64,000 bases of DNA from Candidatus Bruticola sp. GTDB lineage: Bacteria > Vulcanimicrobiota > Xenobia > Xenobiales > Xenobiaceae. Shown in pieces: positions 33,689-50,597 of the stretch. A model generated the notes under the pieces. The model was not told the origin of the DNA, ran no database searches, and saw only the letters and a list, made by a program, of their open reading frames with translations. Location: the NCBI GenBank assembly GCA_051874735.1, contig JBJEGD010000026.1, positions 91,452-155,451 of the forward strand, read 5' to 3'. The first letter of the stretch is position 1. Each line of letters opens with the position of its first letter. The position numbers and the translations under genes were made by a program.

Positions 33689-34402
33689 ATGGAACAGGGA
33701 CTCATACATACTAGCGCTTGTATTGATGTCTTCGCCTCTCTTGGAGAGGGATGCCGAGTCGGAGCTATGGCTGTTATTGAAAGTGGAGCCCAAATTGGCT
33801 GCGGAGCTGAAATCGGTCCTAAAGTTTATATCGGACGCAACGTTTCTATCGGTGAAAGAGCTGTTATAAAGTGCGGTGCTGTTATTATGGATGGCGTTGT
33901 TGTTGGCAGAGAAGCGGTAGTCGAGTCGGGGGCTGTTTTGGGAATGGATGGCTTTGGATATGTTTTTGACGGACAAAGCCATCGTAAAATTCAGCAAATA
34001 GGCAATGTTGTCATTGGGCAGGGAGCGAAAATTGGCGCTTGTTCCTGTATAGACAGGGCCGCTTCTGCTTCAACGGTCGTTGGCGATCATACTGAAATAG
34101 GTCATATGGTGATGGTCGGTCATAACAGCAAGATTGGCAGCGGGTGTCGCATTGGTGATCAGAGCGGTTTAACTGGTTCCTCTCTGGTCGGTAACGATTG
34201 TATCATCGGCTCTCAGTGTGGTATAGGTGTGCGTGTTGAACTTGGCGATGGCTGTGTGTTGCTAGATCGAGCCACGGCTATGCGCAAATATGAGCCTGGG
34301 CAGGTTCTGGCCGGACATCCAGGACGACCGGTGGCGGAGGTTCGCCGTGCAGAAGCGGCTTTTAATTTGCTGCCTAAACTTTTAAAAGATTATATTGAGT
34401 AG
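33689..34402 (+). CDS. LpxD-like UDP-3-O-acyl-glucosamine N-acyltransferase lacking the N-terminal uridine-binding domain. It has only the left-handed beta-helix and the C-terminal helix.
   Basis: Begins exactly where the beta-helix of canonical LpxD begins. Has the GFGY motif and the catalytic GHN His. Only 237 aa versus about 330–340. Confidence 0.65.
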   Translation: MEQGLIHTSACIDVFASLGEGCRVGAMAVIESGAQIGCGAEIGPKVYIGRNVSIGERAVIKCGAVIMDGVVVGREAVVESGAVLGMDGFGYVFDGQSHRKIQQIGNVVIGQGAKIGACSCIDRAASASTVVGDHTEIGHMVMVGHNSKIGSGCRIGDQSGLTGSSLVGNDCIIGSQCGIGVRVELGDGCVLLDRATAMRKYEPGQVLAGHPGRPVAEVRRAEAAFNLLPKLLKDYIE

Positions 34403-34406
34403 TTCG

Positions 34407-34447
34407 TACCGGTCTTGGGGGCGGTTTTCTAGTCGGGAAGACCGGTA
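34407..34447 (+). terminator. Stem-loop after the short lpxD-like gene (10-bp stem, no strong U-tract). Weak terminator or attenuator.
   Basis: TACCGGTCTT…AAGACCGGTA. Confidence 0.3.
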
Positions 34448-34613
34448 GATCTTGTTGTTAGGGCAGATTCGGAGCAACTCATTTCCATTTTATCAATATT
34501 TATGTCAAGGCGCCTCAATTAGTCTGCAGTTTTGAAATTTGCAGCAGCACAGTTTAGGGCGCTATTTTTCTGTGTAACGCAGAGAGCGATGAATCTGTCG
34601 GAGTTGGGTTTTT

Positions 34614-36458
34614 ATGAGAAAATATAATTTATGGGCCTTAATTTTGGCTTTTGTAGTCTTTTATTCCGCTGCTCTGTCATCTGCCTGGGCTGCTGATGTA
34701 ATGCTGGGAGGCCAGGTTATCTTTCGTATAAATGATGAGGATCAAGCAAAAAAAATATCCCAAAAAATTGAAGCTATGTTGCAGAGGGGGGCTTCTTCGT
34801 CTTCAATTAAAGTCGTACGTAAAGATATTGCTGTAGCCTCGGAGGGGCAAGATAAGCAAGATAAAGATGAAGGTAGCAAGGGAGGGGCTAAAGCGAAAAA
34901 ATCTGTTTATAAAATATTTTGGGGAAGTGAATTAGTCATTGAAGTGAATGACGAAATTGCCAAGCAGAATGCTTCTTCTCCAGAAGCTTTAGCTAATTTA
35001 TGGGCCTCCAATATGCGCAATGTCGTCGATATTGGCCTGTTGAATGTTGATGTTGCTAGAGTCGTTTTACCTATAGAGGCTGATAAGGTTATTTACGCTT
35101 CTGGTTTGGCAACCGGTCCTTTGAGTGCTGAAGAGACTTCAGGTATCGTTGATATTGATATCGATCAGGAAAACGGCCTTATTAAGATAAAAGGGCGCAG
35201 GGTTGGAAAGTCGTCTATCGTTATTAGCAAAGGGGTTGCCTCCGTTTCCGTTTTTGTGCAGGTGAAAGATTGGGCCGGCAAACTTCCTCAGACGGTTAAT
35301 GTTGAAGTAACTGGCAATCCTGCACAGATTGATGACGTTTCCCAGGCGGTTATGCTTTCCATAGCGGCTAATACTTTCGTTCAGCCAGGCTGCAGTGTTT
35401 ATGTTGATGATTCCAACTTTAAACCGATTCCGGTGAGTAAAGGCGACAGTATGCGCTTAAGCGTGCCTGTGGGTATAAATGCTTCGGAAGATTATTTTGC
35501 GCTTCGCGGCAATGTTAATGTTGTAGTTAGCAATATAGAAGCTCCTGTAGTTGAGCAGAATCTGCTTCTAGTCAGCAATCGGCCGGAGCGTGTCAGCACA
35601 GATGGAGTATTAATGAAGTATAACTTCAAGAGACGTGAGCCCAGTCGTCTTATGTTCTCCCATCTTAATGCTTCCGAAAAGAATCGTTATTTGTGGATAA
35701 ATTTAGCTAATTTAAATGACGAACCGATAAAGATTGTTATCAGTCGCACTTCTGCTGGACCTGAGCGCAGCGAAATTTATGTCGGCCAAACGGCTGCCAA
35801 GCGCTTTTTAGAAAATTTGGCCAGTCGTTCCGGCTATATCATTACTCTTCCGCCCAATTCTGCTTTAGAGCTCTGTTCTTATGTGATGCGTCCTGAAGCT
35901 TTGGTAAGTGGATTTATAAATTTCCAAATTTTGGAAGGTACTAGCGCGACCGTTGAAGTGCGCAGTTCATTAAATCCTAATGCTAACGATGGACGTCCTC
36001 TGCCAGAAATAGGGGCCCCTTTTAATCCTTTCAAAATACATCCTCACGGAGTTTTTGCTCAGCCTTATTTTGAAAATGAAGGTGAATTTGTTATAGGTGG
36101 CAGTCCTTTAACTTTTCGTTATGGTGAGAGTCCTTGGCTGATTGATTTTGAAACTGGGCTGCCCAACACTGGCAATTTCGGGGTTTTGTATAAATCTTTG
36201 GTAGAATTAAAAAATCCTACTAAGCGTACAAAAACTGTGGGACTTTACTTTACGCCTTTGTCCGGCCCTGGCGGTGCTAACTTCCTGATAGGCAATTCTG
36301 TTTATCAGGCAGTTTTCCGCAAAAAAGGTGATGAAGTACTTGTAGCTAAAATCGAACTCTCGCCAGAGTCTAGCAGTATAATTGAAATTGTCACTTTACC
36401 TGAGGCGACTTCCTGTTATCCTGCCCAGTATGAATTGCGTGAACTGGACGGGCGCTGA
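34614..36458 (+). CDS. Large secreted protein of unknown function (614 aa) embedded in the lipid A cluster.
   Basis: Clear signal peptide MRKYNLWALILAFVVFYSAALSSAWA. No recognisable domain. Confidence 0.6.
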   Translation: MRKYNLWALILAFVVFYSAALSSAWAADVMLGGQVIFRINDEDQAKKISQKIEAMLQRGASSSSIKVVRKDIAVASEGQDKQDKDEGSKGGAKAKKSVYKIFWGSELVIEVNDEIAKQNASSPEALANLWASNMRNVVDIGLLNVDVARVVLPIEADKVIYASGLATGPLSAEETSGIVDIDIDQENGLIKIKGRRVGKSSIVISKGVASVSVFVQVKDWAGKLPQTVNVEVTGNPAQIDDVSQAVMLSIAANTFVQPGCSVYVDDSNFKPIPVSKGDSMRLSVPVGINASEDYFALRGNVNVVVSNIEAPVVEQNLLLVSNRPERVSTDGVLMKYNFKRREPSRLMFSHLNASEKNRYLWINLANLNDEPIKIVISRTSAGPERSEIYVGQTAAKRFLENLASRSGYIITLPPNSALELCSYVMRPEALVSGFINFQILEGTSATVEVRSSLNPNANDGRPLPEIGAPFNPFKIHPHGVFAQPYFENEGEFVIGGSPLTFRYGESPWLIDFETGLPNTGNFGVLYKSLVELKNPTKRTKTVGLYFTPLSGPGGANFLIGNSVYQAVFRKKGDEVLVAKIELSPESSSIIEIVTLPEATSCYPAQYELRELDGR

Positions 36459-36492
36459 CATTTTATGAAGATTATATAAAAATAATATCTAA

Positions 36493-36531
36493 AGCCCGTT
36501 CTGCCGTTGAGGCGGCTCACGGGTTTTTTTT
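36493..36531 (+). terminator. Rho-independent terminator.
   Basis: Nested GC stem CCCGT…GCCG/CGGC…ACGGG followed by T8. Confidence 0.65.
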
Positions 36532-36660
36532 GATATAAATTATGGCGTCAGCATGCTTCTCTAGTGCGATGGAACGATAAATATGGAGGAATAGCGGAGA
36601 AAATATAAAAAAGCGCCGTAGCTTTTTTTCTTTATTTTTTATTAAATTCGGAGTATTTTC

Positions 36661-37500
36661 ATGTGCAGAGCGCAGCGTACTTTGGCGAAAGAAGTTTCCT
36701 TCGAAGGAGTAGGGATTCATACTGGGAGAGCGAGTCACCTAACTATTAAGCCGGCTCCTGTCGATCACGGTCTCGTTTTTCTTAGTTCTGGAGAGTATAT
36801 CCCTGCTACCTATGAGTACGTTATTTCTACAAAGCGCTCTACAACGATTGGTAAGGGACAGGTCGCGGTAAATACTATCGAGCATTTAATGGCCGCTTTT
36901 GGAGGTCTTTCTGTGGATAATGCTCTTATAGAGATAGAAGGGCCGGAAGTTCCTATTTTAGACGGTTCTGCTTTGCCTTTTTGTCAGGCTATGGAAGAAG
37001 CAGGTATAGTTAATATCAAAGGCAGTGAAGTAGAAGATTATTATCTGAGCGAGCCCATTTTTGCTGCAGAAGGGGACAGTTTAGTTTTGGCTATGCCCGA
37101 TTCCCAATATAATCTTGAAGGAGCTGTCAGCTACAACAGTCCTCAAGTAGGTATTCAGCGATATCGTTACTGCGGATATGACAACTTTGTGACTCATATA
37201 GCTCCTGCTCGTACTTTTGGTTTTTGGTCTGAGGTAAAAACTCTCTTAGAAAACGGATTAGGGCAAGGTGGCGATCTGTCTAATGCTTTAATTTATGATC
37301 GTCCTGGTTTTAATGCTGCAGAAAATCAGCGTTTTGTCAATGAACCGGTGCGTCACAAAATTTTAGATTTAGCTGGTGATATTTGTCTGTTAGGTCGTCC
37401 GCTGTGTGCTTTTGTTTTGGCCGTTCGGGCTGGTCATAAATTGCATGTAGAATTCGTTCGCAAAATCGCTGAGGAGATGAAAAAAAATGCTGAATACTAA
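36661..37500 (+). CDS. lpxC: UDP-3-O-acyl-N-acetylglucosamine deacetylase.
   Basis: N-terminal QRTL…GVGIHTG and a C-terminal HKxLD…G motif. Size 279 aa. Confidence 0.9.
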   Translation: MCRAQRTLAKEVSFEGVGIHTGRASHLTIKPAPVDHGLVFLSSGEYIPATYEYVISTKRSTTIGKGQVAVNTIEHLMAAFGGLSVDNALIEIEGPEVPILDGSALPFCQAMEEAGIVNIKGSEVEDYYLSEPIFAAEGDSLVLAMPDSQYNLEGAVSYNSPQVGIQRYRYCGYDNFVTHIAPARTFGFWSEVKTLLENGLGQGGDLSNALIYDRPGFNAAENQRFVNEPVRHKILDLAGDICLLGRPLCAFVLAVRAGHKLHVEFVRKIAEEMKKNAEY

Positions 37501-37912
37501 AGATATATTGCACAGGATTAATTACAAAAGTCCTCTTTTTTTTGTTGATATTGTTAACGAGTTAGAGTTTCCTAAAATCTCTGGTTATAAAAATGTGACT
37601 ATGAGCGAGCCCCATTTCGCTGGACATTTCCCAGGCAAACCCATTATGCCTGGAGTACTACAAATGGAAGCTTTGGTACAGATTTGCCGACTTCTCTATA
37701 TAGGGAATGAAGAGGCTCCTATTAAAGTAAAAGAGCTCGATTTAGTTGGAGTTAAAAAATTTAAGTTTAGAACTCCTGTTGTTCCAGGAGATCGCCTCGA
37801 TCTTTATGCTGAAGAAATTGAGCGTAACAACGAAAATATAGTGCTATCTGTTAAAGCTTGCGTTGGAGATAATGTCGCTTGTGAAGGAATACTTTCTTTC
37901 AGTTGGCAATAA
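37487..37912 (+). CDS. fabZ: 3-hydroxyacyl-ACP dehydratase FabZ.
   Basis: Hot-dog fold motifs HFAGHFPGKPIMPGVL. Overlaps the lpxC stop by 14 nt. Confidence 0.9.
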   Translation: MLNTKDILHRINYKSPLFFVDIVNELEFPKISGYKNVTMSEPHFAGHFPGKPIMPGVLQMEALVQICRLLYIGNEEAPIKVKELDLVGVKKFKFRTPVVPGDRLDLYAEEIERNNENIVLSVKACVGDNVACEGILSFSWQ

Positions 37913-38028
37913 AAGGCGAACGCACGACCGTTTGCGGCTAGCTGTAGGAAATTTGCCATATACAGACGAAATTATAAACCGTTTTGTGTTCGCTTTTGCA
38001 TAGAGACAAAAATTGGAGGATAAGCATT

Positions 38029-38967
38029 ATGAAGCCGATTAAAGTTGGCGTGGTCGGCATTGGTAGTATGGGGAAAAACCATGCTCGAGTGTGCGCCGAA
38101 CTACCTCAAATTGAACTTACAGGCATGGTGGATCTCGATGAAGCCAGAGTCGCCCCTTTAGCTCAGCAGTACGGCACACAGTATTATAAAGATTATAAGA
38201 GTCTCTATGGCAAAATCGACGCTGTAGTTATTGTTGCACCTACACCGCTTCACTATCAAATCGCTCAAGATTTTTTGGAACAGGGCGTTCATGTCTTGGT
38301 AGAAAAGCCCATTACTGTAGAGGTAAGCGAGGCTAAACGGTTAGTGACTTCCGCTAAGGAAAAAAATCTTGTTCTGCAGGTAGGTCATTTGGAGCGTTTC
38401 AATCCAGCCGTAATAAAGCTTAAGCAGATGGTGAGCAAACCTGTGTTAATAGAATGCCACCGCCTTTCTGGGCCTACTACTCGCAGTCTCGATGTCGGTA
38501 TTATTTGGGATTTAATGATCCACGATTTTGATATACTTCTCAGTTTATATAAATCTCCAGTAGCCGAAATCCATGCTATGGGGACTTCTATCTATTCTAA
38601 ATTTGAAGATGTAGCTCACGTGCAAATGCGGTTTGAATGTGGGGCTGTAGCCAGTTTGGTAGCTAGTCGCAATTCCGGAGAAAGGAAGCGCAGTCTCAAA
38701 ATTACTGAAGATACCGGACGAGTTTTGTCTCTCGATTTTATTAACCAAACTTTAGTTATTTCTCGTCCTGGCCCCGATGGGCGTCCCCTAGATTTGGAGC
38801 CAGTTCACATCGAGAAAGAGGAACCTCTACGTTTGGAACTCAGCAATTTTGCAGATTGTGTGATTAATCACAAGGAACCTGTTGTATCCGGTGAGGATGG
38901 CAAGCGAGCTTTGGAATTAGCTGTTCACGTTTTGGAGAATATGCAAAAAATTACGCTTTCTAAGTAA
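38029..38967 (+). CDS. Gfo/Idh/MocA-family NAD(P)-dependent oxidoreductase. GnnA-like position between fabZ and lpxA.
   Basis: MKPIKVGVVGIGSMGKNHA Rossmann N-terminus and a C-terminal Gfo/Idh/MocA domain. Start set at the ATG after GGAGG. Confidence 0.75.
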   Translation: MKPIKVGVVGIGSMGKNHARVCAELPQIELTGMVDLDEARVAPLAQQYGTQYYKDYKSLYGKIDAVVIVAPTPLHYQIAQDFLEQGVHVLVEKPITVEVSEAKRLVTSAKEKNLVLQVGHLERFNPAVIKLKQMVSKPVLIECHRLSGPTTRSLDVGIIWDLMIHDFDILLSLYKSPVAEIHAMGTSIYSKFEDVAHVQMRFECGAVASLVASRNSGERKRSLKITEDTGRVLSLDFINQTLVISRPGPDGRPLDLEPVHIEKEEPLRLELSNFADCVINHKEPVVSGEDGKRALELAVHVLENMQKITLSK

Positions 38968-39017
38968 AGCAGCAATAAAAATTTTTCCGCTTAAAGTACA
39001 GAGAGGAGAGCCAAGAG

Positions 39018-39827
39018 GTGATTCATTCCAGCGCTATAGTACATCCCGGGGCACGCATCGGTGAGGGAGTAGAAATCGGACCTTTTTCTATTATCGGAGA
39101 AAATGTAGAAATTGGAGACGGAACTAAAATTATGTCTTCTGTCGTCATAGATGGATGGACAACTATAGGCAAAAATAACAAAATTTATCCGGGTGTATCT
39201 ATTGGTCTGGCACCTCAGGATTTCAGTTATAAAGGGCAGCGTTCATTTGTAACTATTGGTGATAATAATGAGTTCCGTGAATATGTGACTATTCATAGGG
39301 CTGCCGATGAAGATGGTATTACTTCTGTGGGTAGCGGCAATCTGCTTATGGCGAATGTACACATCGCTCATAACTGCCATATTGGTAGTCAAATTACTAT
39401 GGCTAATTATGCTGGTTTGGCTGGTCATACTGTAGTAGAAGATCAGGCGGTATTAGGTGGGCTTGTAGGTATCCATCAGCACACCCGCATCGGTCGTTTG
39501 TGTATGGTAGGCGGATGCTCCAAGATAAATAAAGATTTGCCGCCCTTCAGTATTGTCGATGGTAATCCTTGTCGTCTCTTTGGTATGAATTTCCGAGGCA
39601 TGCGGCGCCGTGACATTTCTAAGGAAAGTCGTTTAGCTGTTCATAAAGCTATCAATATTTTGGGCAGTTGTGGACTGACCTTAGACGCCGCTATAGAACG
39701 CATAGACAGTGAGTTGGAGCATACCCCTGAAATTGAACATTTCCTGACTTTCCTGCGCGGTGATTCTCATATGGGAGTTCTCAATAAAGCCGGCAACGTA
39801 GGGGCGAGAGCTCACAGTAACGCTTAA
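39018..39827 (+). CDS. lpxA: Acyl-ACP–UDP-GlcNAc (or GlcNAc3N) O-acyltransferase LpxA.
   Basis: Hexapeptide-repeat N-terminus SSAIVHPGARIGEGVEIGPFSIIG and the typical C-terminal helical domain. Confidence 0.9.
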   Translation: MIHSSAIVHPGARIGEGVEIGPFSIIGENVEIGDGTKIMSSVVIDGWTTIGKNNKIYPGVSIGLAPQDFSYKGQRSFVTIGDNNEFREYVTIHRAADEDGITSVGSGNLLMANVHIAHNCHIGSQITMANYAGLAGHTVVEDQAVLGGLVGIHQHTRIGRLCMVGGCSKINKDLPPFSIVDGNPCRLFGMNFRGMRRRDISKESRLAVHKAINILGSCGLTLDAAIERIDSELEHTPEIEHFLTFLRGDSHMGVLNKAGNVGARAHSNA

Positions 39828-39838: not shown

Positions 39839-42286
39839 TTGACTGAAAATAGTCAGCAACAATCATCTGCTTATCCTCAGTTGACGGTTGCGATAATCGC
39901 CATAGAGCCTTCTGCCGATCTTCATGGAAGCAATTTGGCTAGGGCTCTTTTGGCGATTAATCCGCATCTAAAACTGGTCGGCGTAGGCGGATCGCATATG
40001 GCCGCGTCGGGAGTCAGTCTGTGGTTAAGGACCACAGACATGGCAGTTATTGGTCCCGGCGGGGCTATTGCTCGTTTGCCTAAATATATATGTTACTATT
40101 TGTACGTGCGCAGGCATTTGCTTAAGGAACATCCTCACCTCAGCATTTTAATAGACTGCCCCGCCGTTAACATGCGTTATGCTGGTCTTTTGACTCGCTA
40201 TGGCTATCATTCTGTTTATTACTTTCCCCCTTCTGCCTGGACAACCAGCGAAGTGCGTCTTAGACAGATTTTTAGCCGCACAGATAGGGTAATTTGTACC
40301 TTCTTGAGCAATGCCGAAAATTATCGCCGTCTGGGTATGGATGTAGATTTCTTCGGCCATCCTCTTATCGATATGCCCGAGTTAGGAATTTCTGCAGAAG
40401 AAGCTAAAAACAAGTTGGGGCTGGTAGGCGAAAATATTTTGGCTTTACTTCCGGGCAGTCGTGCTTCAGAAATAAAGTATCTATTGCCGATTTTTTTAGA
40501 AATAGTTGCTAAGTTGCATCAAGAAATAGAAAATTTGCAGGTACTTGTACCTTGTGCAACTCAGGCGCTTCGCAGGCAAATAGTTGCCTATATGGGGGAT
40601 AGGTTCCCTTATGTGCGTGTTTTAAATGGGCAGTCTCGTTTAGCCCTTTTAGCTTGTCGAGCAGCGTTGATGAGCTCTGGCACAGCTAGCCTGGAAGCTG
40701 CGATATTAGGCGCCCCAATGGTTCTGTCTTATAAACTTTGTCCCTTCGATGCTGTTATAGGTAAGTTCCTGATTTGGAGTGGTTTATTAAAAATTGAGCA
40801 TATCGGGTTGCCCAGTTTGGTCGCTGGACATCGCATTGTTCCAGAGTTTGTTCAAGATGAAGTTTCACCTGAAAATATTATCCCTCATTTGCGCAATTTT
40901 ATGCGAGATACTCCTGAGCGGTGCCAAATAAAACAAGATCTTTTAGATATGAGGAAGTCCATGGGCGCTCCTGGAGTAATTACCAAGATAGCCTCTTCTT
41001 TATATAGTCGCATTGAGAGCAGTGCTGCTGAAAGGATGGCTGAACCTTTCGACATTGTTATAACATCTAATTCTCCTGGAGAGGTGTCCACGTGGGTGCG
41101 ACGCACTGTTGCTCAGTTGGAGGTTAAAAACAAAGGGCAGTTTAGAGTTATAGTAGCGTTAGTTCCATGTCCTTATGCTTCCGGAGCTGAAGCTGAAGTC
41201 GCCGCTTCTCTGCCAGGCGTTTCCATTGTTCTGACGCCTAGTCAGACTGTGCGTTTAATGTGCGGCATGTTCAACGATTTTGAGCTGCGTAAAAAGGGAG
41301 TAGTAGTATTTTTAGGCGGTGATCTTATTCACGCTAAAATTTTGGCTTGGCGTTTAAAATATCGCTCTATAGCCTATGCAGCTAGATACAACAGGCTAAT
41401 CTACTATTTTGATAAAGTCGCTGCTTCAGATATTTCACTGGCCTCTGAATTATTAGAAGCTGGAGTTAATGAAGTTGTTAATATAGGTAATTTAAGTATT
41501 GATGGGGTTATTTCTGAAGTTGATAGGGAAGCAGCTGATAAAGTATCCCGTAGAACTGGCTTGAAGATTGGCATTTTCCCAGGATCGCGTTTTCTGCATA
41601 CTAAGATCGCTCTAGGAGTGTTTTTGCGTGTAGCTGCTCTAATAAAAACGCGTCACCCTGAGGTTGAATTTGTCCTTTCTGTATCGCCTTTTCTTTCCCC
41701 AGCTCGGCTGGAATCGGCACTTTGTAATCCTTTTAGTTTGGGGCTTCCGGTAGCTAAGGGTAAATTGCTCAGTGCTGATCGCATTGCAGTTGAGTGTATG
41801 TATGAAGATGAACAGGCTGCAGGACGCAGTTTTGAAGTTGAAGTTTTGTGGGGCCATCCTTATCAAGCTATTGCAGAAATAGATATGGCACTTACCATTC
41901 CGGGAACGAATACTGGAGAGTTGGGGTGTTGCGGCAAACCTATGGTAGTAGGACTTTCTGCTGATGCTTCCCTGCCCAGAGGAGGTTTGGGCGGCTTATT
42001 TGAAAGGATGCCAGTTTTATCAAAACTTAAGAGTTATTTGCGCTTGCGTTCTTATGCGCGTCACGGTTTCGCTGCGATCCCTAACCGTATTGCTTCTAGA
42101 GCTATCGTTCCTGAAGTTTTAGTAAAAAAAGATACGTCTGTGCTGGCCCAGCCTATTTTAGAGTGGATTGAAACTCCTGAGAAGTACGCCCGTGTTTCCC
42201 AAGATTTAAAAGACACTATGAGAACGACAGAGGGAGCGGGCAAGCGCATGGCTGAGTTGATCCTGGGTTTGGTTGATTCTAAATAA
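39839..42286 (+). CDS. lpxB: Lipid-A-disaccharide synthase fused in tandem to a second GT19 (LpxB-like) domain (815 aa).
   Basis: Residues 1 to about 390 carry the LpxB motifs LLPGSR and SSGTASLEAAILGAPMVLSY. Residues about 400–815 repeat them as IFPGSR and IPGTNTGELGCCGKPMVVGL. Confidence 0.8.
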   Translation: MTENSQQQSSAYPQLTVAIIAIEPSADLHGSNLARALLAINPHLKLVGVGGSHMAASGVSLWLRTTDMAVIGPGGAIARLPKYICYYLYVRRHLLKEHPHLSILIDCPAVNMRYAGLLTRYGYHSVYYFPPSAWTTSEVRLRQIFSRTDRVICTFLSNAENYRRLGMDVDFFGHPLIDMPELGISAEEAKNKLGLVGENILALLPGSRASEIKYLLPIFLEIVAKLHQEIENLQVLVPCATQALRRQIVAYMGDRFPYVRVLNGQSRLALLACRAALMSSGTASLEAAILGAPMVLSYKLCPFDAVIGKFLIWSGLLKIEHIGLPSLVAGHRIVPEFVQDEVSPENIIPHLRNFMRDTPERCQIKQDLLDMRKSMGAPGVITKIASSLYSRIESSAAERMAEPFDIVITSNSPGEVSTWVRRTVAQLEVKNKGQFRVIVALVPCPYASGAEAEVAASLPGVSIVLTPSQTVRLMCGMFNDFELRKKGVVVFLGGDLIHAKILAWRLKYRSIAYAARYNRLIYYFDKVAASDISLASELLEAGVNEVVNIGNLSIDGVISEVDREAADKVSRRTGLKIGIFPGSRFLHTKIALGVFLRVAALIKTRHPEVEFVLSVSPFLSPARLESALCNPFSLGLPVAKGKLLSADRIAVECMYEDEQAAGRSFEVEVLWGHPYQAIAEIDMALTIPGTNTGELGCCGKPMVVGLSADASLPRGGLGGLFERMPVLSKLKSYLRLRSYARHGFAAIPNRIASRAIVPEVLVKKDTSVLAQPILEWIETPEKYARVSQDLKDTMRTTEGAGKRMAELILGLVDSK

Positions 42287-42356
42287 TATGAAAATTCCTA
42301 ATGAAAATTGCCAAAATATTGCTACTCCTTTTATTTTCAAGTGGCGAGGCTTGATT

Positions 42357-42941
42357 ATGGCAGTAGTGACGGCTATCATACTGGCTGCTGCCAAGCCAAC
42401 TTTAGTTACCTGCTGCTGGGGAATTGGCTTTGTACTTTTAGGAGAGCTGTTGCGTTCATGGGCTTTGGGCTGGACTGGAGAACATACACGTAGTCAGGAA
42501 TTAATGGCGTCTTTTTTAGTTACTGGCGGTCCTTATAAATACATACGCAATCCACTGTACTTAGGCAATATTTTAAACGGATTTGGGGTTATGGTTGCTG
42601 CTTCTGGAGCTATGTCGTATTTGGGAACGGCTGCTTTGTGGGCTTTTGGTCTTCTATCTCTTTATATGGTTTATGCTTCATGTATAATCGCTGAAGAAGC
42701 TTTCTTGGCTATGCGTTTTGGTGATCTCTTCTTCCGCTACAGAGCAGTTACGCCGACCATTGTACCGCGTTGGGGAGATTATCTCGATTTTATAAGCAGT
42801 TTTTTCAATTTCTCTTCCTGTACAGATGTTCAATATGAAGGGAGAGGCTTCTTCTCTTGGCAATCTTTAAAATTTGAATATAGTACTTGGGGATGGATAA
42901 TTGCTGTTTGGTCTTGTTTATTTATAAAAGCTTTCATGTAA
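42357..42941 (+). CDS. ICMT/PEMT-family membrane methyltransferase-like protein (LmtA-like candidate).
   Basis: Multi-transmembrane protein with an RNPLYLG motif of the isoprenylcysteine carboxyl methyltransferase family. Start chosen at the ATG 7 nt after GAGG. The track start at 42273 overlaps lpxB. Confidence 0.5.
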   Translation: MAVVTAIILAAAKPTLVTCCWGIGFVLLGELLRSWALGWTGEHTRSQELMASFLVTGGPYKYIRNPLYLGNILNGFGVMVAASGAMSYLGTAALWAFGLLSLYMVYASCIIAEEAFLAMRFGDLFFRYRAVTPTIVPRWGDYLDFISSFFNFSSCTDVQYEGRGFFSWQSLKFEYSTWGWIIAVWSCLFIKAFM

Positions 42942-42943
42942 AA

Positions 42944-42984
42944 ACATTTAGTGCTTATCCCCTGCCTTAGGCTGGGATAAGCAC
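42944..42984 (-). terminator. Hairpin terminator for the convergent minus-strand operon.
   Basis: 11-bp stem GTGCTTATCCC/GGGATAAGCAC followed by AAATGTTTTT on the minus strand. Confidence 0.45.
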
Positions 42985-43026
42985 TTGACCAGGCTATGTT
43001 ATATGCTGCTATTCTCTAGTTAATAG

Positions 43027-44232
43027 TTAAGGCCGCATGGAAATCTCGGTTAAAATTTGAGCCATGCGGGCTGCTCCTCCGGGAGGGCCTAGTCTCTCTT
43101 GGCCGATAGATCCGCGCCGTTGCCGATCAGCTTTGTCTTGCATTAGGCGACATAGAGTTTCGATTATATCGGGATCGTAATCTTCACAAACAATAAGAGC
43201 CTCACCGAGCAGCCCCTTTTGTCTGGCCCTATACCACTTTAAACGAGTCTCTCCGCCTGGTTCATAAGCAACAACAGGAATACCGTGACCAGCCGCTTGT
43301 TCATGTGCTGTGCCCGCCAATCCTAGAGCGACTTGACTGTATTTTAGTACATCAGCTAGATGGCCTTTGATAAGAAAGAACTGAACTTGATACTCCGCCT
43401 TGTTGTCTGCAAGTTTAAGTTCGCTCCAACCCGGATAAGGTGCTTCGTTCATAACAAAACCCGGACAGGCCTGTGCTAACTTTGAGGTATCAATAGATGG
43501 AGCTACGGCAATAAAGGCACAAATTTTCTTATTTAAGCGTTGAGACAGCTGGCAACTTATTTCTAAAAGGCGAGGCAGTACCCTGTAAGTAGCTTGTCTG
43601 CTGCCGGGAAAGAGAGCTAGGCCTATTTCTTTGCTGCTGTCTAGACTGAAGTCCAGTTCTTGAGGAACCAAACCATCCATCATAGCATTACCTACCCAGA
43701 TAGCTTTAACTCCTTTTTGACGCAGACTGGCAGCTGTAGGTTCATCTCGGACAATAGAGCGAACTTTGAAAGTTCTCAGAACCCAAGCTTCTAGAGCTGA
43801 GTAAGGATGATGATAGTCAGATTTAGCCGTGCCAATGAAGGTTATTGGGCGTATACCAGATAGGGCAGCTAGAATAACTGGCCAAAGATCGCCGACAGCG
43901 GCAATGTGATTGAAACGGTGACGATTTGAGCGCAGCCAAAACAGCTGTTTTAAAGTTAAATAGGCTAAGCCGCCGCCAAGATCTTTCCAAAAATTACGCC
44001 AATCTTCTTGAATAAGGCCGCCGCTGGGCATGTCGCTGACAGGGCCGTTTATGGGAGCTATTCCTTTGTACGCTGAGCCTTCTCCAACCAAAGGTAAAGC
44101 TTCTATATCGATTGATTTAGGCAGCTCCTTAATTATCTGGGCAGCTATGGAATCTTCACCGGCTCCGTTAGATACAAGTAAAAGGCGTTGAGGGGCGGGC
44201 ATAATCTCTCCTTTTAAGTTTTTTAGCAGCAA
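43027..44232 (-). CDS. GT19-family lipid-A-disaccharide-synthase-related glycosyltransferase (third LpxB-like domain in the window).
   Basis: LALFPGSR motif and ALGLAGTAHEQAAGHGIPVVAY, equivalent to the LpxB ASGTA…PMVV block. Confidence 0.6.
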   Translation of the reverse strand: MLLKNLKGEIMPAPQRLLLVSNGAGEDSIAAQIIKELPKSIDIEALPLVGEGSAYKGIAPINGPVSDMPSGGLIQEDWRNFWKDLGGGLAYLTLKQLFWLRSNRHRFNHIAAVGDLWPVILAALSGIRPITFIGTAKSDYHHPYSALEAWVLRTFKVRSIVRDEPTAASLRQKGVKAIWVGNAMMDGLVPQELDFSLDSSKEIGLALFPGSRQATYRVLPRLLEISCQLSQRLNKKICAFIAVAPSIDTSKLAQACPGFVMNEAPYPGWSELKLADNKAEYQVQFFLIKGHLADVLKYSQVALGLAGTAHEQAAGHGIPVVAYEPGGETRLKWYRARQKGLLGEALIVCEDYDPDIIETLCRLMQDKADRQRRGSIGQERLGPPGGAARMAQILTEISMRP

Positions 44233-44234
44233 AT

Positions 44235-45080
44235 TTAAGCTAAACTTATCAACTTACAGTGACTTAGCTGTGGATTATCCATATTGTATTCAATTTCATT
44301 TATATGTTTGGCGAATGCACCAGTTTGTACAATAAAAGAACCATTAACTTGACAAGGTGAGTCCAGTTGGGTATGGGTATGGCCTCCTAAAATCCAGGTG
44401 CCTGGCGGCGTATTAACCGCCAATTGCTGATCTCGGTCAAAACCTATGTGACTGATGATAACTAAATTAGTTCTTAGACCTAATTTAGCTGAGCAGCGAT
44501 CAGCTATCTGAGGCAAAGTTGTCTCTGCTTTGAAAAAACGAAAACCAAATATTTTTTCCCATATGGCATTATGAGGGTATTGCACCGGCATGGCTGATAA
44601 AATCAGCAAGGCACAATTTGAGCTCCAAGAGCTGTTAAAAAGCGCCAGACCGGGAATCCAGCGCTCTGAGGATAGTTCTTGCCAGGCCGAGGAGTTACGC
44701 CAGTTAGCAGAACTGCAGTCTATTATTGGTATATCTTGAATTTGCTCGACAAATTCGCGCTGAGTTAAATGACCACTAAGACGTATATCAGACAAATTAG
44801 TACAGATAAGCGGAAAAGAACGCTGTCTAGCTCTTTTGTCTAGAATACGCCTTTGATAATTGAACTCTCGATTGCCCATAGCCATGGCTGCGCAGCCGAC
44901 AGAACTCATTTTATCTAAGTTTGGTTCAAAGTTTTTCCATACTGTGTTAGAACCGATTAGAGCGTCGCCGCTGTCAAAATAAAGGGCTTGACCTGCGGCT
45001 ATAGAGGCCTGGGCCTGGCTTTTGAGCCAAGCCAAAGCCTCGCTGCGTCCGTGCATATCGTTGGTATGATAAATAATCAT
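44235..45080 (-). CDS. Calcineurin-like metallophosphoesterase. Candidate UDP-2,3-diacylglucosamine hydrolase analog.
   Basis: Metallophosphoesterase motifs DMHG, DSGD, GNREF and GGHTH. Positioned between lpxD and the LpxB-like gene. Confidence 0.6.
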   Translation of the reverse strand: MIIYHTNDMHGRSEALAWLKSQAQASIAAGQALYFDSGDALIGSNTVWKNFEPNLDKMSSVGCAAMAMGNREFNYQRRILDKRARQRSFPLICTNLSDIRLSGHLTQREFVEQIQDIPIIDCSSANWRNSSAWQELSSERWIPGLALFNSSWSSNCALLILSAMPVQYPHNAIWEKIFGFRFFKAETTLPQIADRCSAKLGLRTNLVIISHIGFDRDQQLAVNTPPGTWILGGHTHTQLDSPCQVNGSFIVQTGAFAKHINEIEYNMDNPQLSHCKLISLA

Positions 45081-45105: not shown

Positions 45106-45678
45106 TCAATTTTTGCTTCGCTGGGAAACTTTTGAGCTTCTTTCCTGAGCTACTTCGGTATAGACTTGACGGTAGCGATCTATTCCTATATATCTACAAA
45201 TTACTATACCGTAACCTATTATCCAACCGACTCCAGCTAGAGAAGCACCACCCAAACATACCCCTAATATTAAACCAATGCATCCGAAAATTAAACTGTT
45301 TAGCATAGGCTTAGAATCTAGTGATATTGAGTAACCTAAAGAAAGCCCAATAATAGCTCCCACTAGTCCGTAGTAACTACCTTTGCCTATATCTGCAGCC
45401 GTGGTTGCAATAGCCAAACTCGCTTTAGCTGCCTGCACAAGTGAATATTCAGACTGGCCAGCATCGATAATGGAGTTCGCTCCCCACAAGAATCCCATCA
45501 TCAGTCCCATGCCGGCGAAGCAGAGGCAGTACAAAGTCCTCTGTTGTTTGGTAAGAAAAGTTACAGACTGTTCTGTATTACTAGTCTTATTCGCGGTAGA
45601 CGATGAATTTTTTTTATCTTGCTTAGCGTTTTTCTTTTCTTTTTTTTTGCTGTCTTTGAGAGACGCCGGATCACTCAT
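45106..45678 (-). CDS. Membrane protein with a Lys-rich N-terminus and glycine-zipper transmembrane helices.
   Basis: Hydrophobic GxxxG-rich C-terminal half. In an operon with lpxD, with an 8-nt overlap. Confidence 0.45.
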   Translation of the reverse strand: MSDPASLKDSKKKEKKNAKQDKKNSSSTANKTSNTEQSVTFLTKQQRTLYCLCFAGMGLMMGFLWGANSIIDAGQSEYSLVQAAKASLAIATTAADIGKGSYYGLVGAIIGLSLGYSISLDSKPMLNSLIFGCIGLILGVCLGGASLAGVGWIIGYGIVICRYIGIDRYRQVYTEVAQERSSKVSQRSKN

Positions 45679-46654
45679 GTTTTTTATCTTTGTCCTTCAG
45701 AGATAATTTTGCCAATTTTTTTATTTGCTCCCATTTTTTTAAAGGAAGCTGACGCATCGCAATTTGGCGCATCGATACTTTATGTGCTTGAACGGGATCG
45801 CCGGACCACACTGACTGACCGGCTGGAATATCTTTATCCACGCCCGATCTAGCTGCTACTGTGGCAAAATCGCCGATATGACGCCCTTCTTTTACCAAGC
45901 ATTGGCCGGCGGCTATGGATAATTTTCCAATATAAGCTCTCTCCTGCAGACAGTTTTGAGAAATAATTATAGCCATAGGCTCTATAATAGATTCTTTGTT
46001 AATGCAGGCTAAATTGTCTATGCGCACTCCTTGATGAATAAGTGCTTTCCTGCCTATAAAGCAGCGAGCACCTATTTCAATATCACTTCCCAAAGAAGCT
46101 TCATCTTCGATAATGGTTAGCGGCCCTACTAAACTTGAACCTTCCAATTTTACTTTTTTCCCTAAAGAAACTCCGGGCATCAATTTAGTGTCAGCTCCTA
46201 CAAAGCTGTCGCTATCTATGCTGACATGAGCTTGAATTTGGCAGTTATCGCCAATGGTTACTCCATCTGCTATAACGGCAAAGGGGCCTATATAGGCTGT
46301 AGGAGATATGTTGGCAGAATCGCTTATGCAAGCACTTTCGTGTATCCCCGGCTTAAAGCGAAAAGGAGGATAATACAAATCGAGGAGCTTAGCATAGGCT
46401 ACTCGAGAATTTTTCACTAATATAGCCGGAATATTTGTTTGTATTTTTTCGGGTATAATTACTGCAGCAAAGCCGAGGTGCACTGCTTCTTGTAGTGAAC
46501 TTTCGTCTTCAGCGAAAGTAATTGCCGAGTTTAGATTGTGACTTAAAGCTGCGTCCATACCTGTGACTTCTTTTATAACCAGAGAAGCACTTTCCGGTAT
46601 GTTCAGACGACCTTCAAGATAATCGGCCAGCTCTTTTAAGTTCTTTACCACCAT
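45671..46654 (-). CDS. lpxD: Full-length UDP-3-O-acylglucosamine N-acyltransferase LpxD.
   Basis: N-terminal L.ELA..L.G domain, hexapeptide repeats with the catalytic His (LIHQGV), and a C-terminal helix. 327 aa. Confidence 0.85.
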   Translation of the reverse strand: MVVKNLKELADYLEGRLNIPESASLVIKEVTGMDAALSHNLNSAITFAEDESSLQEAVHLGFAAVIIPEKIQTNIPAILVKNSRVAYAKLLDLYYPPFRFKPGIHESACISDSANISPTAYIGPFAVIADGVTIGDNCQIQAHVSIDSDSFVGADTKLMPGVSLGKKVKLEGSSLVGPLTIIEDEASLGSDIEIGARCFIGRKALIHQGVRIDNLACINKESIIEPMAIIISQNCLQERAYIGKLSIAAGQCLVKEGRHIGDFATVAARSGVDKDIPAGQSVWSGDPVQAHKVSMRQIAMRQLPLKKWEQIKKLAKLSLKDKDKKHE

Positions 46655-48827: not shown

Positions 48828-50597
48828 TTAGAAAACGGCTGTACCTGGATCTGTTTTAGCTTGCTGGTAAAAATCTTGCCAGAGTTTTTTCTCATTGTTC
48901 ATGCGTTCAACGCTGACATTTTTACTCTTAATTTTTGCGACTATGTCTTGCCGACTGCGTTCTACTTCTTTGAAACGACCTGGTTTCCAAGCGTACTCGT
49001 CAAGATTGTATATATCGCGGTTGCGGTACTCTCCCACTTTATAAAGGACAGCGTAATTTTTTTCCATGTAGTACAAAGTTTCAAACGAAAAAGGATTAAG
49101 TTTGTTAGCTTTTTCGAAACACTGAGCTGCATCGTAGAAATAACTCTCTACAGGACGGTTTTTATCCTGAGCTTTATCGCCTTTGCGTAAGCGCTCGTAT
49201 CGGTATATACCCGCCCTTAAGTAACTTTGCCCTTGATTAAATTTAAATGAGGAATAAGTCCAGAAGCCAAGAGCGACAGCTATGATTAAAGGTCCTATCA
49301 CCAGAGCGAAGATGCTAGCTGCTTTATATGTGGCGGTGGAGTCTCCTTTGTCTTTGGGGGCATTACCGGACACAATGCGCTCTCTGGCAGCATAAAAATC
49401 TTGTTCTATAGTTTCTTTAGTTTTGGAAGCTAAAGCCCTTATTTTAGCTTCGTATCGGTTAGAAGCCATGATTTTTGTGCATATATCGGAGGCCGCTTCT
49501 AAAAAACCAGAGTGACCGATCTCTTCAGCCATTAACAGCCAATCCTCAGGATCGCTGCTGGTAATTTCGTGAATAACTTCACCTGGGCGAATGGAATCAT
49601 CTAGTTCCAACGCTTTGGAAAAATGGACTGCTGCTCTTTCTGGTTCGCCTATGGCCATAGAACATAGGCCTAAGCCATAGTGAGCATCAATATTATTAGG
49701 GAAGCGTTTCAGACTATTCTGAATATCAAAGTGCAGCTCTGAGAATTTTCCTTTGTCGAAAAGCTCAAGCTGTTCTTCCGTAAAAATATTGGCGATTTTG
49801 CGGGAAGTTACTGGAATTTTAGGAGTTGTCGACTGAGAGTTTTGCTCAGCTTCGACCTTTACTACATTTTGGGATACCGAAGGAGTTGCGGGCGGTACCG
49901 TAGGCTGCGAAGATAGCTGTGCTGACCTTTCTGTTGGTATATTCGCAGAGGTTGGGGCTGTCTGAGGATATCCCGGCTGCATAGGTCTGGGCTGGGGCGG
50001 TCTGCCTCCCGGTGTACCTGCGAGCACGGGAGCAGACTGAGGGTATCCCGTCTGCATAGGTCTGGGCTGGGGCGGTCTGCCTCCCGGTGTACCTGCGAGC
50101 ACGGGAGCAGACTGAGGGTATCCCGTCTGCATAGGTCTGGGCTGAGGCGGTCTGCCTCCTGGTGTACCTGCGGGCATGGGAGCAGACTGAGGATATCCCG
50201 TATGCGTAGGTCTGGGCTGAGGCGGTCTTCCTCCTGGTGTACCTGCGGGCATAGGAGCAGACTGAGGATATCCCGTCTGCATAGGTCTGGGCTGAGGCGG
50301 TCTTCCTCCTGGTGTACCTGCAGGCATGGGAGCAGACTGAGGATATCCCGTCTGCATAGGTCTGGGCTGAGGTAGTCTTCCTCCTGGCGTATTTAAAGGC
50401 ATGGGAGCAGACTGAGGGTGTCCCGGATGCATGGGGCTAGGCTGGGGGGGACGGGGAGTATAGCTTTGCCTTGATGAATACGGTTGAGATGTACTGGGAA
50501 TTGCAGTTTGAGCACTGAAATTATCCGCAGGAGTACCCTGGCTATCCTGCTGGTCTTGTAGTGTTAAATTGCTGCGCGGAGGCATTTGCATGCTCAC
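48828..50597 (-). CDS. Pro-rich tandem-repeat / TPR membrane protein (589 aa).
   Basis: Six near-identical 26-aa repeats, PMQTGYPQSAPMPAGTPGGRPPQPR, encoded by 78-bp DNA repeats at about 49975–50450. A TPR-like segment, one transmembrane helix and a C-terminal domain follow. Confidence 0.65.
   Translation of the reverse strand: MSMQMPPRSNLTLQDQQDSQGTPADNFSAQTAIPSTSQPYSSRQSYTPRPPQPSPMHPGHPQSAPMPLNTPGGRLPQPRPMQTGYPQSAPMPAGTPGGRPPQPRPMQTGYPQSAPMPAGTPGGRPPQPRPTHTGYPQSAPMPAGTPGGRPPQPRPMQTGYPQSAPVLAGTPGGRPPQPRPMQTGYPQSAPVLAGTPGGRPPQPRPMQPGYPQTAPTSANIPTERSAQLSSQPTVPPATPSVSQNVVKVEAEQNSQSTTPKIPVTSRKIANIFTEEQLELFDKGKFSELHFDIQNSLKRFPNNIDAHYGLGLCSMAIGEPERAAVHFSKALELDDSIRPGEVIHEITSSDPEDWLLMAEEIGHSGFLEAASDICTKIMASNRYEAKIRALASKTKETIEQDFYAARERIVSGNAPKDKGDSTATYKAASIFALVIGPLIIAVALGFWTYSSFKFNQGQSYLRAGIYRYERLRKGDKAQDKNRPVESYFYDAAQCFEKANKLNPFSFETLYYMEKNYAVLYKVGEYRNRDIYNLDEYAWKPGRFKEVERSRQDIVAKIKSKNVSVERMNNEKKLWQDFYQQAKTDPGTAVF

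Follow-up and report, generated by a model that had tools for sequence, protein, structure and literature searches.

The locus and its genes

The window (the whole 64,000-nt stretch of Candidatus Bruticola sp. DNA that was analysed) is an outer-membrane biogenesis supercluster with BamA, Skp, Lpx genes and LptC/B/FG. Within it, two open reading frames carry three homologous GT-B units (table 1). The first encodes an 815-aa protein identical in sequence to NCBI MGM9992361.1, 'lipid-A-disaccharide synthase' (Candidatus Bruticola sp.), and the second, on the opposite strand, a 401-aa protein of the TIGR03492 type. Both frames lie where the first-pass annotation had put them, the first two units do share one frame as it described, and its glycosyltransferase motifs are all placed correctly, although the N-terminal half (N-half) reads PMVL rather than PMVV.

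Table 1. Genes, units and motifs of the locus (positions in the window)
Feature	Position	Strand	Details
Upstream lipid A gene block	33689–39827	+	
LpxD-like	33689–34402	+	
Conserved 614-aa protein	34614–36458	+	
LpxC	36661–37500	+	
FabZ	37487–37912	+	
UDP-GlcNAc 3-dehydrogenase-like GnnA	37984–38967	+	NF040723, 274.9 bits, below cut-off
LpxA	39018–39827	+	
LpxB–LpxB' fused ORF	39839–42286	+	815 aa, two complete GT-B units
N-half, canonical LpxB (GT19)	39839–41035	+	aa 1–399; profiles and motifs
N-half E-x-S-x-D motif, IEPSAD	39902–39919	+	
N-half catalytic-base Asp in LIDCP	40148–40162	+	
N-half PGSR	40451–40462	+	LLPGSR, aa 203–208
N-half GTASLE	40679–40696	+	SGTASLE...APMVL
N-half LPSL	40808–40819	+	Ser in place of E. 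coli N316
Fusion junction LpxB/LpxB'	41000–41060	+	model and DNA of relatives
C-half, LpxB', distinct LpxB-paralog family	41036–42283	+	aa 400–815; profiles, motifs, model
C-half NSPGE	41069–41083	+	
C-half VPCPYASGAE	41162–41191	+	
C-half FLGGD	41309–41323	+	
C-half PGSR	41579–41590	+	IFPGSR, aa 579–584
C-half PGTNTGE	41900–41920	+	PGTNTGE...KPMVV
C-half PMV(V)	41939–41947	+	
C-half PRGGLGG insertion	41975–41995	+	
C-half IPNR	42077–42088	+	
ICMT/PEMT-type integral membrane methyltransferase	42273–42941	+	PF04191, PF04140
TIGR03492 'lipid-A-disaccharide synthase-related protein'	43027–44232	-	401 aa; profile, NCBI annotation
TIGR03492 GTAHEQ	43297–43314	-	
TIGR03492 PGSR	43597–43608	-	
TIGR03492 VGDLW	43882–43896	-	
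TIGR03492 NGAGED	44152–44169	-	
Calcineurin-type metallophosphoesterase	44235–45080	-	281 aa, UshA-N-domain-like, conserved GNRE block
Predicted membrane protein	45106–45678	-	190 aa; in relatives conserved between methyltransferase and phosphoesterase
Second LpxD-like acyltransferase	45671–46654	-	

One canonical LpxB and two related families

The three units had been described as LpxB-like GT19 domains. Their homology is borne out by profile comparison (hhalign), but, by curated thresholds, only the N-half is classified as a GT19 LpxB. It scores 248.6 bits against TIGR00215 (cut-off 190.25; aa 15–383) and 249.7 bits against PF02684 (cut-off 22.6), is the orthologue of E. coli LpxB (GT19; PF02684; TIGR00215; PDB 5W8S/5W8X) and has the LpxB active-site set E15, S17, D98, P198-G-S-R201, T277 and E281 (residue list from PMC5785501). 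The N316 position is Ser in 13/13 fused LpxB halves and Asn in 42/42 unfused LpxB sequences. N316 is a residue of the swapped C-terminal segment.

The C-terminal half (C-half), here called LpxB', stays below the equivalog cut-off of TIGR00215 (26.6 bits, E 2.6e-6, against 190.25), and its match to PF02684 when searched alone (23.8 bits, gathering score 22.6) covers only 42 residues. The two halves share 23% identity over 314 aa in blastp (E 2.6e-4). At the level of families, hhalign joins the C-half family to LpxB at 99.9% (E 5.3e-38, 339 columns), and a profile of 46 C-half sequences finds E. coli LpxB 5W8S at E 3e-16 and epimerases only at E about 0.1. The C-half is confidently predicted to adopt a GT-B two-Rossmann fold (pLDDT 92.5, pTM 0.88), for which the top Foldseek match is LpxB. 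Judged from these sequence comparisons, LpxB' is homologous to LpxB along its whole length, with certain membership of the superfamily, and forms a family of its own, unnamed and about 400 aa long, outside the LpxB equivalog.

LpxI/DUF1009 was considered as another identity for the C-half and rejected: the Pfam profiles LpxI_N and LpxI_C gave no match to it at E up to 10, the same library recognised a true LpxI in one of the loci of relatives (L071), and the GT-B model and the LpxB profile match point elsewhere.

Conservation within LpxB' is uneven along the chain. Among 81 aligned sequences spanning several phyla, the donor side is almost unchanged: the PGSR loop has P in 79, G and S in all 81, and R in 71 with K in the other 10, and the columns of T277 (80/81), E281 (81/81), N316 (81/81) and E326 (80/81) are likewise kept. 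In E. coli LpxB these residues bind the phosphates and ribose of UDP, or anchor the C-terminal segment (PMC5785501). On the acceptor side, E15, S17 and D98 are not conserved in place. NSPGE replaces E-x-S-G-D, the column of the predicted base D98 is an invariant Gly with an acidic D/E two positions later, and family-specific N-domain motifs (NSPGE, LVPCPYASGAE and GG(D/E)xWHA) are strictly conserved. The comparison of substrate-binding residues proposed in the earlier annotation thus has a split outcome, with the UDP-binding set kept and E15, S17 and D98 replaced. The C-half also differs from E. coli LpxB in an extra beta-hairpin, in the PRGGLGG insertion and in lacking part of the region that bears the hydrophobic membrane patch of LpxB.

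The 401-aa protein is a member of TIGR03492, a hypothetical equivalog of NCBIfam, and shows no family-level difference from it (273.7 bits, cut-off 219.2; aa 18–396 on model positions 1–394). Its gene probably starts at the Met at 44202, which corresponds to the 391-aa NCBI protein. It carries the motifs LFPGSR and AGTAHEQAAGHGIPVVAY. TIGR03492-like sequences align by hhalign with the LpxB family (99.3%, E 2.8e-20) and with the C-half family (99.6%, E 6e-24), and they keep PGSR (45/45, with one S to T) and T277 (45/45); in the column of the ribose-binding Glu they have Gln, with a Glu one position earlier. Like LpxB', the family falls below the LpxB cut-off and has invariant motifs of its own, N-G-A-G-E-D and VGD, at the regions of E15/S17 and D98. 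Both share with E. coli LpxB the GT-B fold, the PGSR loop and the GT(x)3E helix start, whereas the LpxB segment LPN..AGR..VPE is retained by the C-half and not by the 401-aa protein. LpxB' and TIGR03492 are old, independently widespread families of the LpxB superfamily; a literature search for both found no biochemical study of any member.

The tandem is a genuine gene fusion

Elsewhere in the Eremiobacterota lpxB and lpxB' are encoded separately; where the DNA was examined, their stop and start codons overlap within 4 nt (GTGA/TTGA at the junction position). In the more distant relatives the separate genes occupy different frames, and because they overlap by 4 nt in different frames, one indel could fuse them. 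An in-frame ATG also stands at the junction of the window's own ORF. Both facts speak for an assembly or sequencing artefact that joined two neighbours, a reading that is nevertheless extremely improbable. The same tandem recurs in 17 protein clusters of 754–831 aa at 36–100% identity, drawn from NCBI, ENA, Logan and JGI assemblies, and a single frame runs across both halves in 12 loci of relatives from independent MAGs, with the junction conserved and the internal Met/start missing in most. Two representatives (P0121 and P0122) have syntenic contexts. The frameshift that the first-pass annotation had named as a possible refutation is therefore not what joins the halves: the LpxB gene of this gut member of the Eremiobacterota is truly joined to its LpxB-like paralog. 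The tandem belongs to the host-associated UBP9/Bruticola clade, and most relatives keep lpxB' as its own gene.

An AlphaFold2 model of the full-length fusion (pLDDT 89.7, pTM 0.78) predicts a junction without a flexible linker, in which the last LpxB helix (H380–401) leads to the first LpxB' strand (E404–410). Other LpxB fusions, such as PAP2-LpxB of about 615 aa and the chlamydial long LpxB PRK01021, are likewise multi-domain and based on LpxB; they pair a single GT19 unit with an unrelated domain, and no tandem of two LpxB-like units occurs among them.

Partners of LpxB' and TIGR03492

Functional information comes from the partners of these genes, in particular the methyltransferase, the metallophosphoesterase and MsbA. 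Across 78 genome loci, the gene just before lpxB' is lpxB in 50 and the one just after it is the methyltransferase in 49; 40 loci contain both the phosphoesterase and TIGR03492. In the window the first 14 nt of the methyltransferase gene lie within the end of the fusion ORF; other lineages have a methyltransferase joined C-terminally to LpxB'. LpxB' also occurs away from lpxB. The gene directly after lpxB' is msbA in at least 14 loci, which come from Margulisiibacteriota, Sericytochromatia, Aerophobetes and similar MAGs; in two loci with this arrangement (L069 and L076) TIGR03492 and GT4 genes come next. A GT2-LpxB' fusion lies inside a GT2/ArnT-like/GT9/MsbA-like cluster. A possible absence of LpxK and WaaA was checked by tblastn within the local loci.

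The methyltransferase finds LmtA_Leptospira (TIGR04571) as its best NCBIfam match, at 42.7 bits (E 5.5e-11) against a cut-off of 325, and so falls outside LmtA; its resemblance extends to the ICMT/PEMT superfamily only. It shares with LmtA of Leptospira, a lipid A 1-phosphate methyltransferase of the ICMT family, the type of membrane methyltransferase fold and the lipid A context.

The metallophosphoesterase is a constant neighbour of TIGR03492, and the two are fused once, in a single operon of the order lpxA-lpxB-lpxB'-PEMT-TM-fusion. This constant pairing, the fusion and the linkage to LpxB' and msbA are new for TIGR03492. The enzyme's five metallophosphoesterase blocks (D-x-H, GD, GNRE, H and GHxH) hold across 45 sequences. 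It has these blocks in common with the calcineurin-type UDP-2,3-diacylglucosamine pyrophosphatases LpxH/LpxG, and its GNx(D/E) block contains Arg as in LpxH (motif definition from PMC3087551). Against NCBIfam no LpxH model matched (the best were SoxB and UshA), which places it outside LpxH by sequence; among solved structures, the UDP-sugar hydrolase UshA and 5'-nucleotidases come closest. It is a candidate UDP-2,3-diacylglucosamine pyrophosphatase.

Possible roles of the two additional units

We propose that the locus encodes a canonical LpxB together with two active LpxB-derived UDP-sugar transferases, LpxB' and TIGR03492, that act on lipid A intermediates, and we give this proposal about an even chance. 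Both the catalytic activity and the lipid A intermediate as acceptor are inferred. The N-half would make the lipid A disaccharide. LpxB' and TIGR03492 would bind a UDP-linked donor in the manner of LpxB, with an N-terminal acceptor domain rebuilt in both, and would act on the cytoplasmic side of the inner membrane, either following LpxB or alongside it, with MsbA flipping the product afterwards. One conceivable reaction would attach a sugar to the disaccharide where Kdo or phosphate otherwise goes. The analogy to the Kdo transferase WaaA/KdtA (GT30, GT-B) would be purely functional, as the units have no specific sequence relationship to it and a UDP-type site where WaaA uses CMP-Kdo. LpxB' would be in physical contact with LpxB; in UBP9/Bruticola the two are parts of one chain, predicted to be joined by an unbroken helix. 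The membrane methyltransferase encoded next to them may modify the same lipid, and TIGR03492 may partner the LpxH-like metallophosphoesterase. Addition of a further sugar fits the gene context best among the three options of the earlier annotation. More broadly, such LpxB relatives, whose families sit in clusters of outer-membrane lipid genes, may perform lipid A steps so far unknown in cyanobacteria and their relatives.

E. coli LpxB forms an obligate dimer with swapped C-termini (PMC5785501), which offers a structural rationale for bringing two LpxB-like chains together, and an LpxB/LpxB' pseudo-dimer might mimic the homodimer. The same requirement for a swapped dimer suits a non-catalytic C-half, that is, a pseudo-enzyme or regulatory subunit standing in for the second protomer, as do the contiguous or fused genes, the Gly at the catalytic-base column and the Ser for Asn exchange at N316 that distinguishes fused from unfused LpxB. 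This option, raised in the earlier annotation, is disfavoured, since the C-half family keeps its UDP-binding residues invariant; conservation of the entire set across phyla would be unusual for a scaffold. The strictly conserved N-domain motifs also count against it, as does the occurrence of LpxB' apart from lpxB, beside msbA or fused to a GT2 or a methyltransferase. We consider it quite improbable.

As E15, S17 and D98 are unconserved in place, a different chemistry, or none, is possible for LpxB' and TIGR03492. This loss weighs on the idea that either one represents a further isoform of the lipid A disaccharide synthase with another substrate pair (for example, GlcN3N-based vs GlcN-based UDP-diacyl sugars, giving mixed or alternative backbones), because E. 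coli LpxB needs these residues. A canonical LpxB is, moreover, always kept alongside, and LpxB' and TIGR03492 occur without a nearby GnnA in L062, L069–L071 and L076. For such an isoform speak the GnnA-like gene and two LpxD-like genes of the cluster, donor-site residues as in LpxB, and the coupling of TIGR03492 to an LpxH-like phosphoesterase, the type of enzyme that makes the acceptor of LpxB. Overall, it seems unlikely.

An acceptor other than lipid A could still serve the extra units. Deinococcus is considered to be without lipid A, and therefore relatives may use other lipids. A different membrane lipid as the substrate of LpxB' and/or TIGR03492, or a role for them as UDP-sugar hydrolases or epimerase-like proteins instead of transferases, is in our view rather unlikely. 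Across phyla the gene is tightly and repeatedly flanked by lpxA/lpxB on one side and msbA/Lpt genes on the other, and the C-half profile is far closer to LpxB than to epimerases.

Three LpxB-like units, one of them a canonical LpxB

Both open reading frames described in the first-pass annotation are present, and the motifs quoted for them are found at the residues listed in the table. The reported PMVV block holds for the C-terminal half of the 815-aa product (C-half, aa 400-815); the N-terminal half (N-half, aa 1-399) reads PMV-L instead. NCBI MGM9992361.1, a 'lipid-A-disaccharide synthase' from a Candidatus Bruticola sp. MAG, has exactly the 815-aa sequence, and in the same MAG a 391-aa 'lipid-A-disaccharide synthase-related protein' is the counterpart of the 401-aa gene. 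The window has its nearest genomes in Candidatus Bruticola, Hadza gut MAGs and UBP9/UBA4705, which places it in the host-associated branch of the Eremiobacterota.

Three GT19 units had been claimed. Three homologous LpxB-like units are indeed there, but curated criteria admit only the N-half as a GT19 LpxB. By its profile scores (aa 15-383; TIGR00215 248.6 bits, cut-off 190.25; PF02684 249.7 bits) the N-half is a bona fide LpxB. Taken alone, the C-half stays below the TIGR00215 cut-off (26.6 versus 190.25) and reaches 23.8 against 22.6 for PF02684 with 42 residues covered. The two halves match each other at 23% over 314 aa (blastp, E 2.6e-4), a 46-sequence profile of the C-half family matches E. 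coli LpxB 5W8S at E 3e-16, and the family alignments compared by hhalign give 99.9% (E 5e-38, 339 columns). On these alignments the homology of the C-half to LpxB is secure all the same. Modelled alone, the C-half is a predicted GT-B protein (pLDDT 92.5, pTM 0.88) whose top Foldseek match is LpxB 5W8X. An LpxI/DUF1009 identity, named beforehand as refuting, is excluded for the C-half by profile search, by the LpxB profile match and by the GT-B model. The 401-aa protein exceeds the TIGR03492 cut-off (273.7 versus 219.2), and by this score is a member of that named but uncharacterised family, which by hhalign is related to the C-half family (99.6%, E 6e-24) as well as to LpxB (99.3%, E 3e-20).

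Features of the window discussed in the text (nucleotide positions; aa, residues of the product)
Feature	Position	Strand	Length	Remarks
Sugar-nucleotide protein	1206-4445	+	1079 aa	sugar-1-phosphate nucleotidyltransferase, hexapeptide and phosphoglucomutase/phosphomannomutase domains, DUF5752
BamA, Skp/OmpH-like genes	26887-33194			BamA 1030 aa, multiple POTRA domains
LpxD-like	33689-34402	+	237 aa	no N-terminal domain; below LpxD equivalog cut-off
Conserved protein	34614-36458	+	614 aa	hydrophobic N-terminus; weak DUF3370 match only
GnnA-like dehydrogenase	37984-38967			
LpxB-LpxB' fusion	39839-42286	+	815 aa	
LLPGSR	aa 203-208			N-half of fusion
GTASLE...PMV-L	aa 281-286/293-295			N-half of fusion
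IFPGSR	aa 579-584			C-half of fusion
PGTNTGE...PMVV	aa 688-694/701-704			C-half of fusion
ICMT/PEMT-type membrane methyltransferase	42273-42941	+		closest NCBIfam model LmtA, far below threshold
TIGR03492 gene	43027-44232	-	401 aa	motifs at aa 209-212 and 307-321
Metallophosphoesterase	44235-45080	-	281 aa	D-x-H / GD / GNRE / H / GHxH conserved
Second LpxD-like	45671-46654	-		N-terminal domain present, divergent hexapeptide region; below LpxD equivalog cut-off
LptC-LptB-LptF/G	51009-53778			

Reality and distribution of the fusion

When 1.84 billion representatives were searched exhaustively, two more full-length fusions came up (56% and 37% identity), both in syntenic contexts, and a word-indexed search gave 17 fusion clusters (754-831 aa, 36-100% identity) originating from NCBI, ENA, Logan and JGI. 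Among the relatives' loci taken from public genomes and assemblies, 12 carry LpxB and LpxB' (the C-half family) in one open frame (L005-L014, L018, L031), and all 12 are closest relatives from gut or rumen. About 40 other loci in which lpxB also lies directly upstream carry two separate, closely spaced genes, in different reading frames in nearly all cases; where relatives were inspected as DNA, start and stop of the two overlap in GTGA/TTGA. The junction Met of the window is Gln or another residue in most fused relatives, which therefore have no independent C-half start there.

The tandem fusion is thus borne out by 17 clusters and 12 loci. The rival explanation, a frameshift or assembly artefact joining two genes, had also been named as refuting; we rejected it and consider it extremely improbable, since the same fusion recurs in divergent, independent assemblies, mostly without an internal start codon. 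In the full-length model (pLDDT 89.7, pTM 0.78) the last LpxB helix (380-401) leads into the first LpxB' strand (404-410) with no disordered linker. In E. coli, LpxB is obligately dimeric, with C-terminal swapping (PMC5785501), and the sequence of contiguous genes and later rigid fusion suggests a putative LpxB/LpxB' pseudo-dimer.

The fusion is not categorically new; the LpxB' family itself is unnamed, without a dedicated Pfam/NCBIfam profile, and we found no characterisation of LpxB' or TIGR03492 in the literature. The label 'lipid-A-disaccharide synthase' on 815-aa proteins conceals half of each of them.

LpxB' and TIGR03492 as candidate transferases

LpxB' is a family of free-standing proteins of about 380-450 aa carried by Eremiobacterota (Vulcanimicrobiota, Xenobia, UBP9). 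It also occurs in MAGs that carry the label Sericytochromatia, Margulisiibacteriota or Aerophobetes, in picocyanobacteria (Cyanobium WP_254930777.1, annotated 'glycosyl transferase') and in Limnochorda pilosa (annotated 'hypothetical protein'). Invariant motifs are NSPGE, LVPCPYASGAE and FLGG(D/E)xWHA in the N-terminal part, and PGSR, SPF, IPGTNT.E, PMVV, PRGGLGG and ALPN..AGR..VPE elsewhere.

We mapped 81 LpxB' sequences onto the E. coli LpxB residues defined in PMC5785501. The alignment shows an intact UDP site, that is, PGSR with Arg in 71 and Lys in 10 of the 81, T277 in 80 and E281 in all, with N316 and E326 likewise retained. On the acceptor side, E15 and S17 of the N-domain are replaced, and where E. 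coli has the predicted base D98, LpxB' invariably has Gly, followed two positions on by an acidic residue. TIGR03492 keeps PGSR and T277 in 45 of 45 sequences; its E281 column holds Gln, immediately preceded by Glu, and it has N-x-x-G-E and GDxW-type N-domain motifs in common with LpxB'.

Keeping the donor site and rebuilding the acceptor side is what would be expected of a transferase that has taken on a new acceptor. A decayed pseudo-enzyme, an option raised in the first-pass annotation, is disfavoured by this pattern and by the near-invariant UDP-site residues. A C-half serving as a non-catalytic partner would fit a pseudo-dimer and seems to us distinctly improbable next to that conservation. 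LpxB' may otherwise be a second lipid A disaccharide synthase isoform, which would suit its LpxB-type donor site; with E15, S17 and D98 all replaced, we judge this unlikely.

From these residues and the gene context we infer, with about even confidence, that LpxB' and TIGR03492 are catalytically active and transfer sugar to lipid A intermediates. The N-half would form the lipid A disaccharide, and both families, as UDP-dependent GT-B enzymes, would use lipid A intermediates at the cytoplasmic face prior to export. LpxB itself already attaches a sugar to the 6-OH of acylated glucosamine. The simplest neofunctionalisation would be for the disaccharide to receive a sugar instead of Kdo or phosphate.

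The position of N316 differs between fused and unfused LpxB: it is Ser in 13 of 13 fused LpxB halves (window 40808-40819, aa 324-327) and Asn in 42 of 42 unfused LpxB from related loci. N316 lies within the C-terminal segment that is swapped, and the E. coli N316A variant reportedly keeps 0.1-0.3% of activity. The Ser may be a mere clade marker.

Gene neighbourhood and alternative fusions

The window forms a supercluster for outer-membrane biogenesis. Its order is BamA, Skp, LpxD-like, the 614-aa protein, LpxC, FabZ, GnnA-like dehydrogenase, LpxA, LpxB-LpxB' and the methyltransferase, followed by the convergent TIGR03492, metallophosphoesterase, small membrane protein, second LpxD-like and PmbA/TldD genes and then LptC/B/FG. 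With its BamA/Skp and Lpt flanks, this is a single supercluster of the type seen in Terrabacteria-type diderms. In almost every Eremiobacterota locus that reaches far enough upstream, the 614-aa gene separates lpxD from lpxC.

Across 78 genome loci with LpxB', lpxB is immediately upstream of lpxB' in 50 and the methyltransferase immediately downstream in 49; 40 of the 78 contain both phosphoesterase and TIGR03492. Further, independent fusions link the parts: LpxB'-methyltransferase (about 580-640 aa, several Eremiobacterota/'Armatimonadota' MAGs), GT2-LpxB' (clustered with GT2, ArnT-like, GT9 and MsbA-like genes) and phosphoesterase-TIGR03492 (cluster representative P0345, operon lpxA-lpxB-lpxB'-PEMT-TM-fusion). 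An apparent LpxB'-phosphatase fusion, P0275 (PAP2 plus PF02684), was discarded because family HMMs assign its GT unit to canonical LpxB.

In lineages outside the Eremiobacterota, an msbA-like ABC exporter gene directly follows lpxB' in at least 14 loci (including L062-L065, L069-L071, L076, L077, L079-L081 and L083; about 9.2-11 kb in most). In L069 and L076 the exporter gene is followed by TIGR03492 and two GT4 genes, and L071 reads lpxC-fabZ-lpxA-PEMT-lpxI-lpxB-lpxB'-msbA-(nucleotidyltransferase)-TIGR03492. Among these loci LpxI was seen only in L071 and L062, both without the metallophosphoesterase. Another lipid acceptor, or hydrolase/epimerase-like chemistry, could also accompany a rebuilt acceptor side; beside this lipid A gene order we think it rather improbable.

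MAG labels are often unreliable: Eremiobacterota-type lipid A gene order appears under Burkholderiales, Bacillota, Chloroflexota, Riflebacteria and Selenomonadaceae, probably through taxonomic mislabels or mis-binned contigs.

A candidate lipid A/core pathway

The phosphoesterase gene always adjoins TIGR03492. Its family retains all five metallophosphoesterase blocks, including the Arg in GNRE; according to PMC3087551, Arg in this third block is a substitution peculiar to LpxH, and the window protein has it too. The nearest solved relative is the UDP-sugar hydrolase UshA. These features make it a candidate non-orthologous LpxH, the pyrophosphatase of UDP-2,3-diacylglucosamine. The best NCBIfam match of the methyltransferase, far below threshold, is Leptospira LmtA, a lipid A 1-phosphate methyltransferase. 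Both enzymes would have the same lipid as target.

Cyanobacteria and Dictyoglomi are reported with only lpxA, lpxC, lpxD and lpxB; cyanobacteria and some other phyla reportedly lack LpxH, LpxK and WaaA and have LPS without Kdo or phosphate (PMC3087551). E. coli LpxK and WaaA gave no tblastn match in the window and about 85 loci, a low-sensitivity search of local DNA. For steps of lipid A/LPS assembly that lack an explanation in cyanobacteria-like diderms (acceptor synthesis, core attachment), the locus supplies concrete candidates: two old families derived from LpxB whose UDP sites are intact, a phosphoesterase resembling LpxH and a membrane methyltransferase, linked by gene order and four different gene fusions. 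A bolder, tentative and on balance doubtful reading takes these four jointly as the missing enzymes of a Kdo-/LpxK-independent lipid A/core pathway common to Cyanobacteria, Margulisiibacteriota, Eremiobacterota, Limnochordia and other Terrabacteria-type diderms. LpxB', as obligate pseudo-dimer with LpxB, would there replace WaaA and put the first core sugar, from a UDP-sugar donor, onto the disaccharide.

The candidates occur in cultured organisms (Cyanobium, Limnochorda) open to knock-out. The carriers here are gut/rumen Eremiobacterota, and their lipid A structure is thus relevant to host sensing.

Other features of the window

The two LpxD-like genes and the GnnA-like dehydrogenase suggest a GlcN3N-containing or mixed lipid A backbone. 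The 1079-aa protein, judged by its domains, may be a multi-step nucleotide-sugar factory. Finally, a 75-bp tandem repeat (6.4 copies, 92% identity, 49962-50444) lies inside ORF 48828-50597 (-) and encodes Pro-rich 25-aa units (PQPRPMQTGYPQSAPMPAGTPGGRP) in a 589-aa protein adjoining the Lpt genes.
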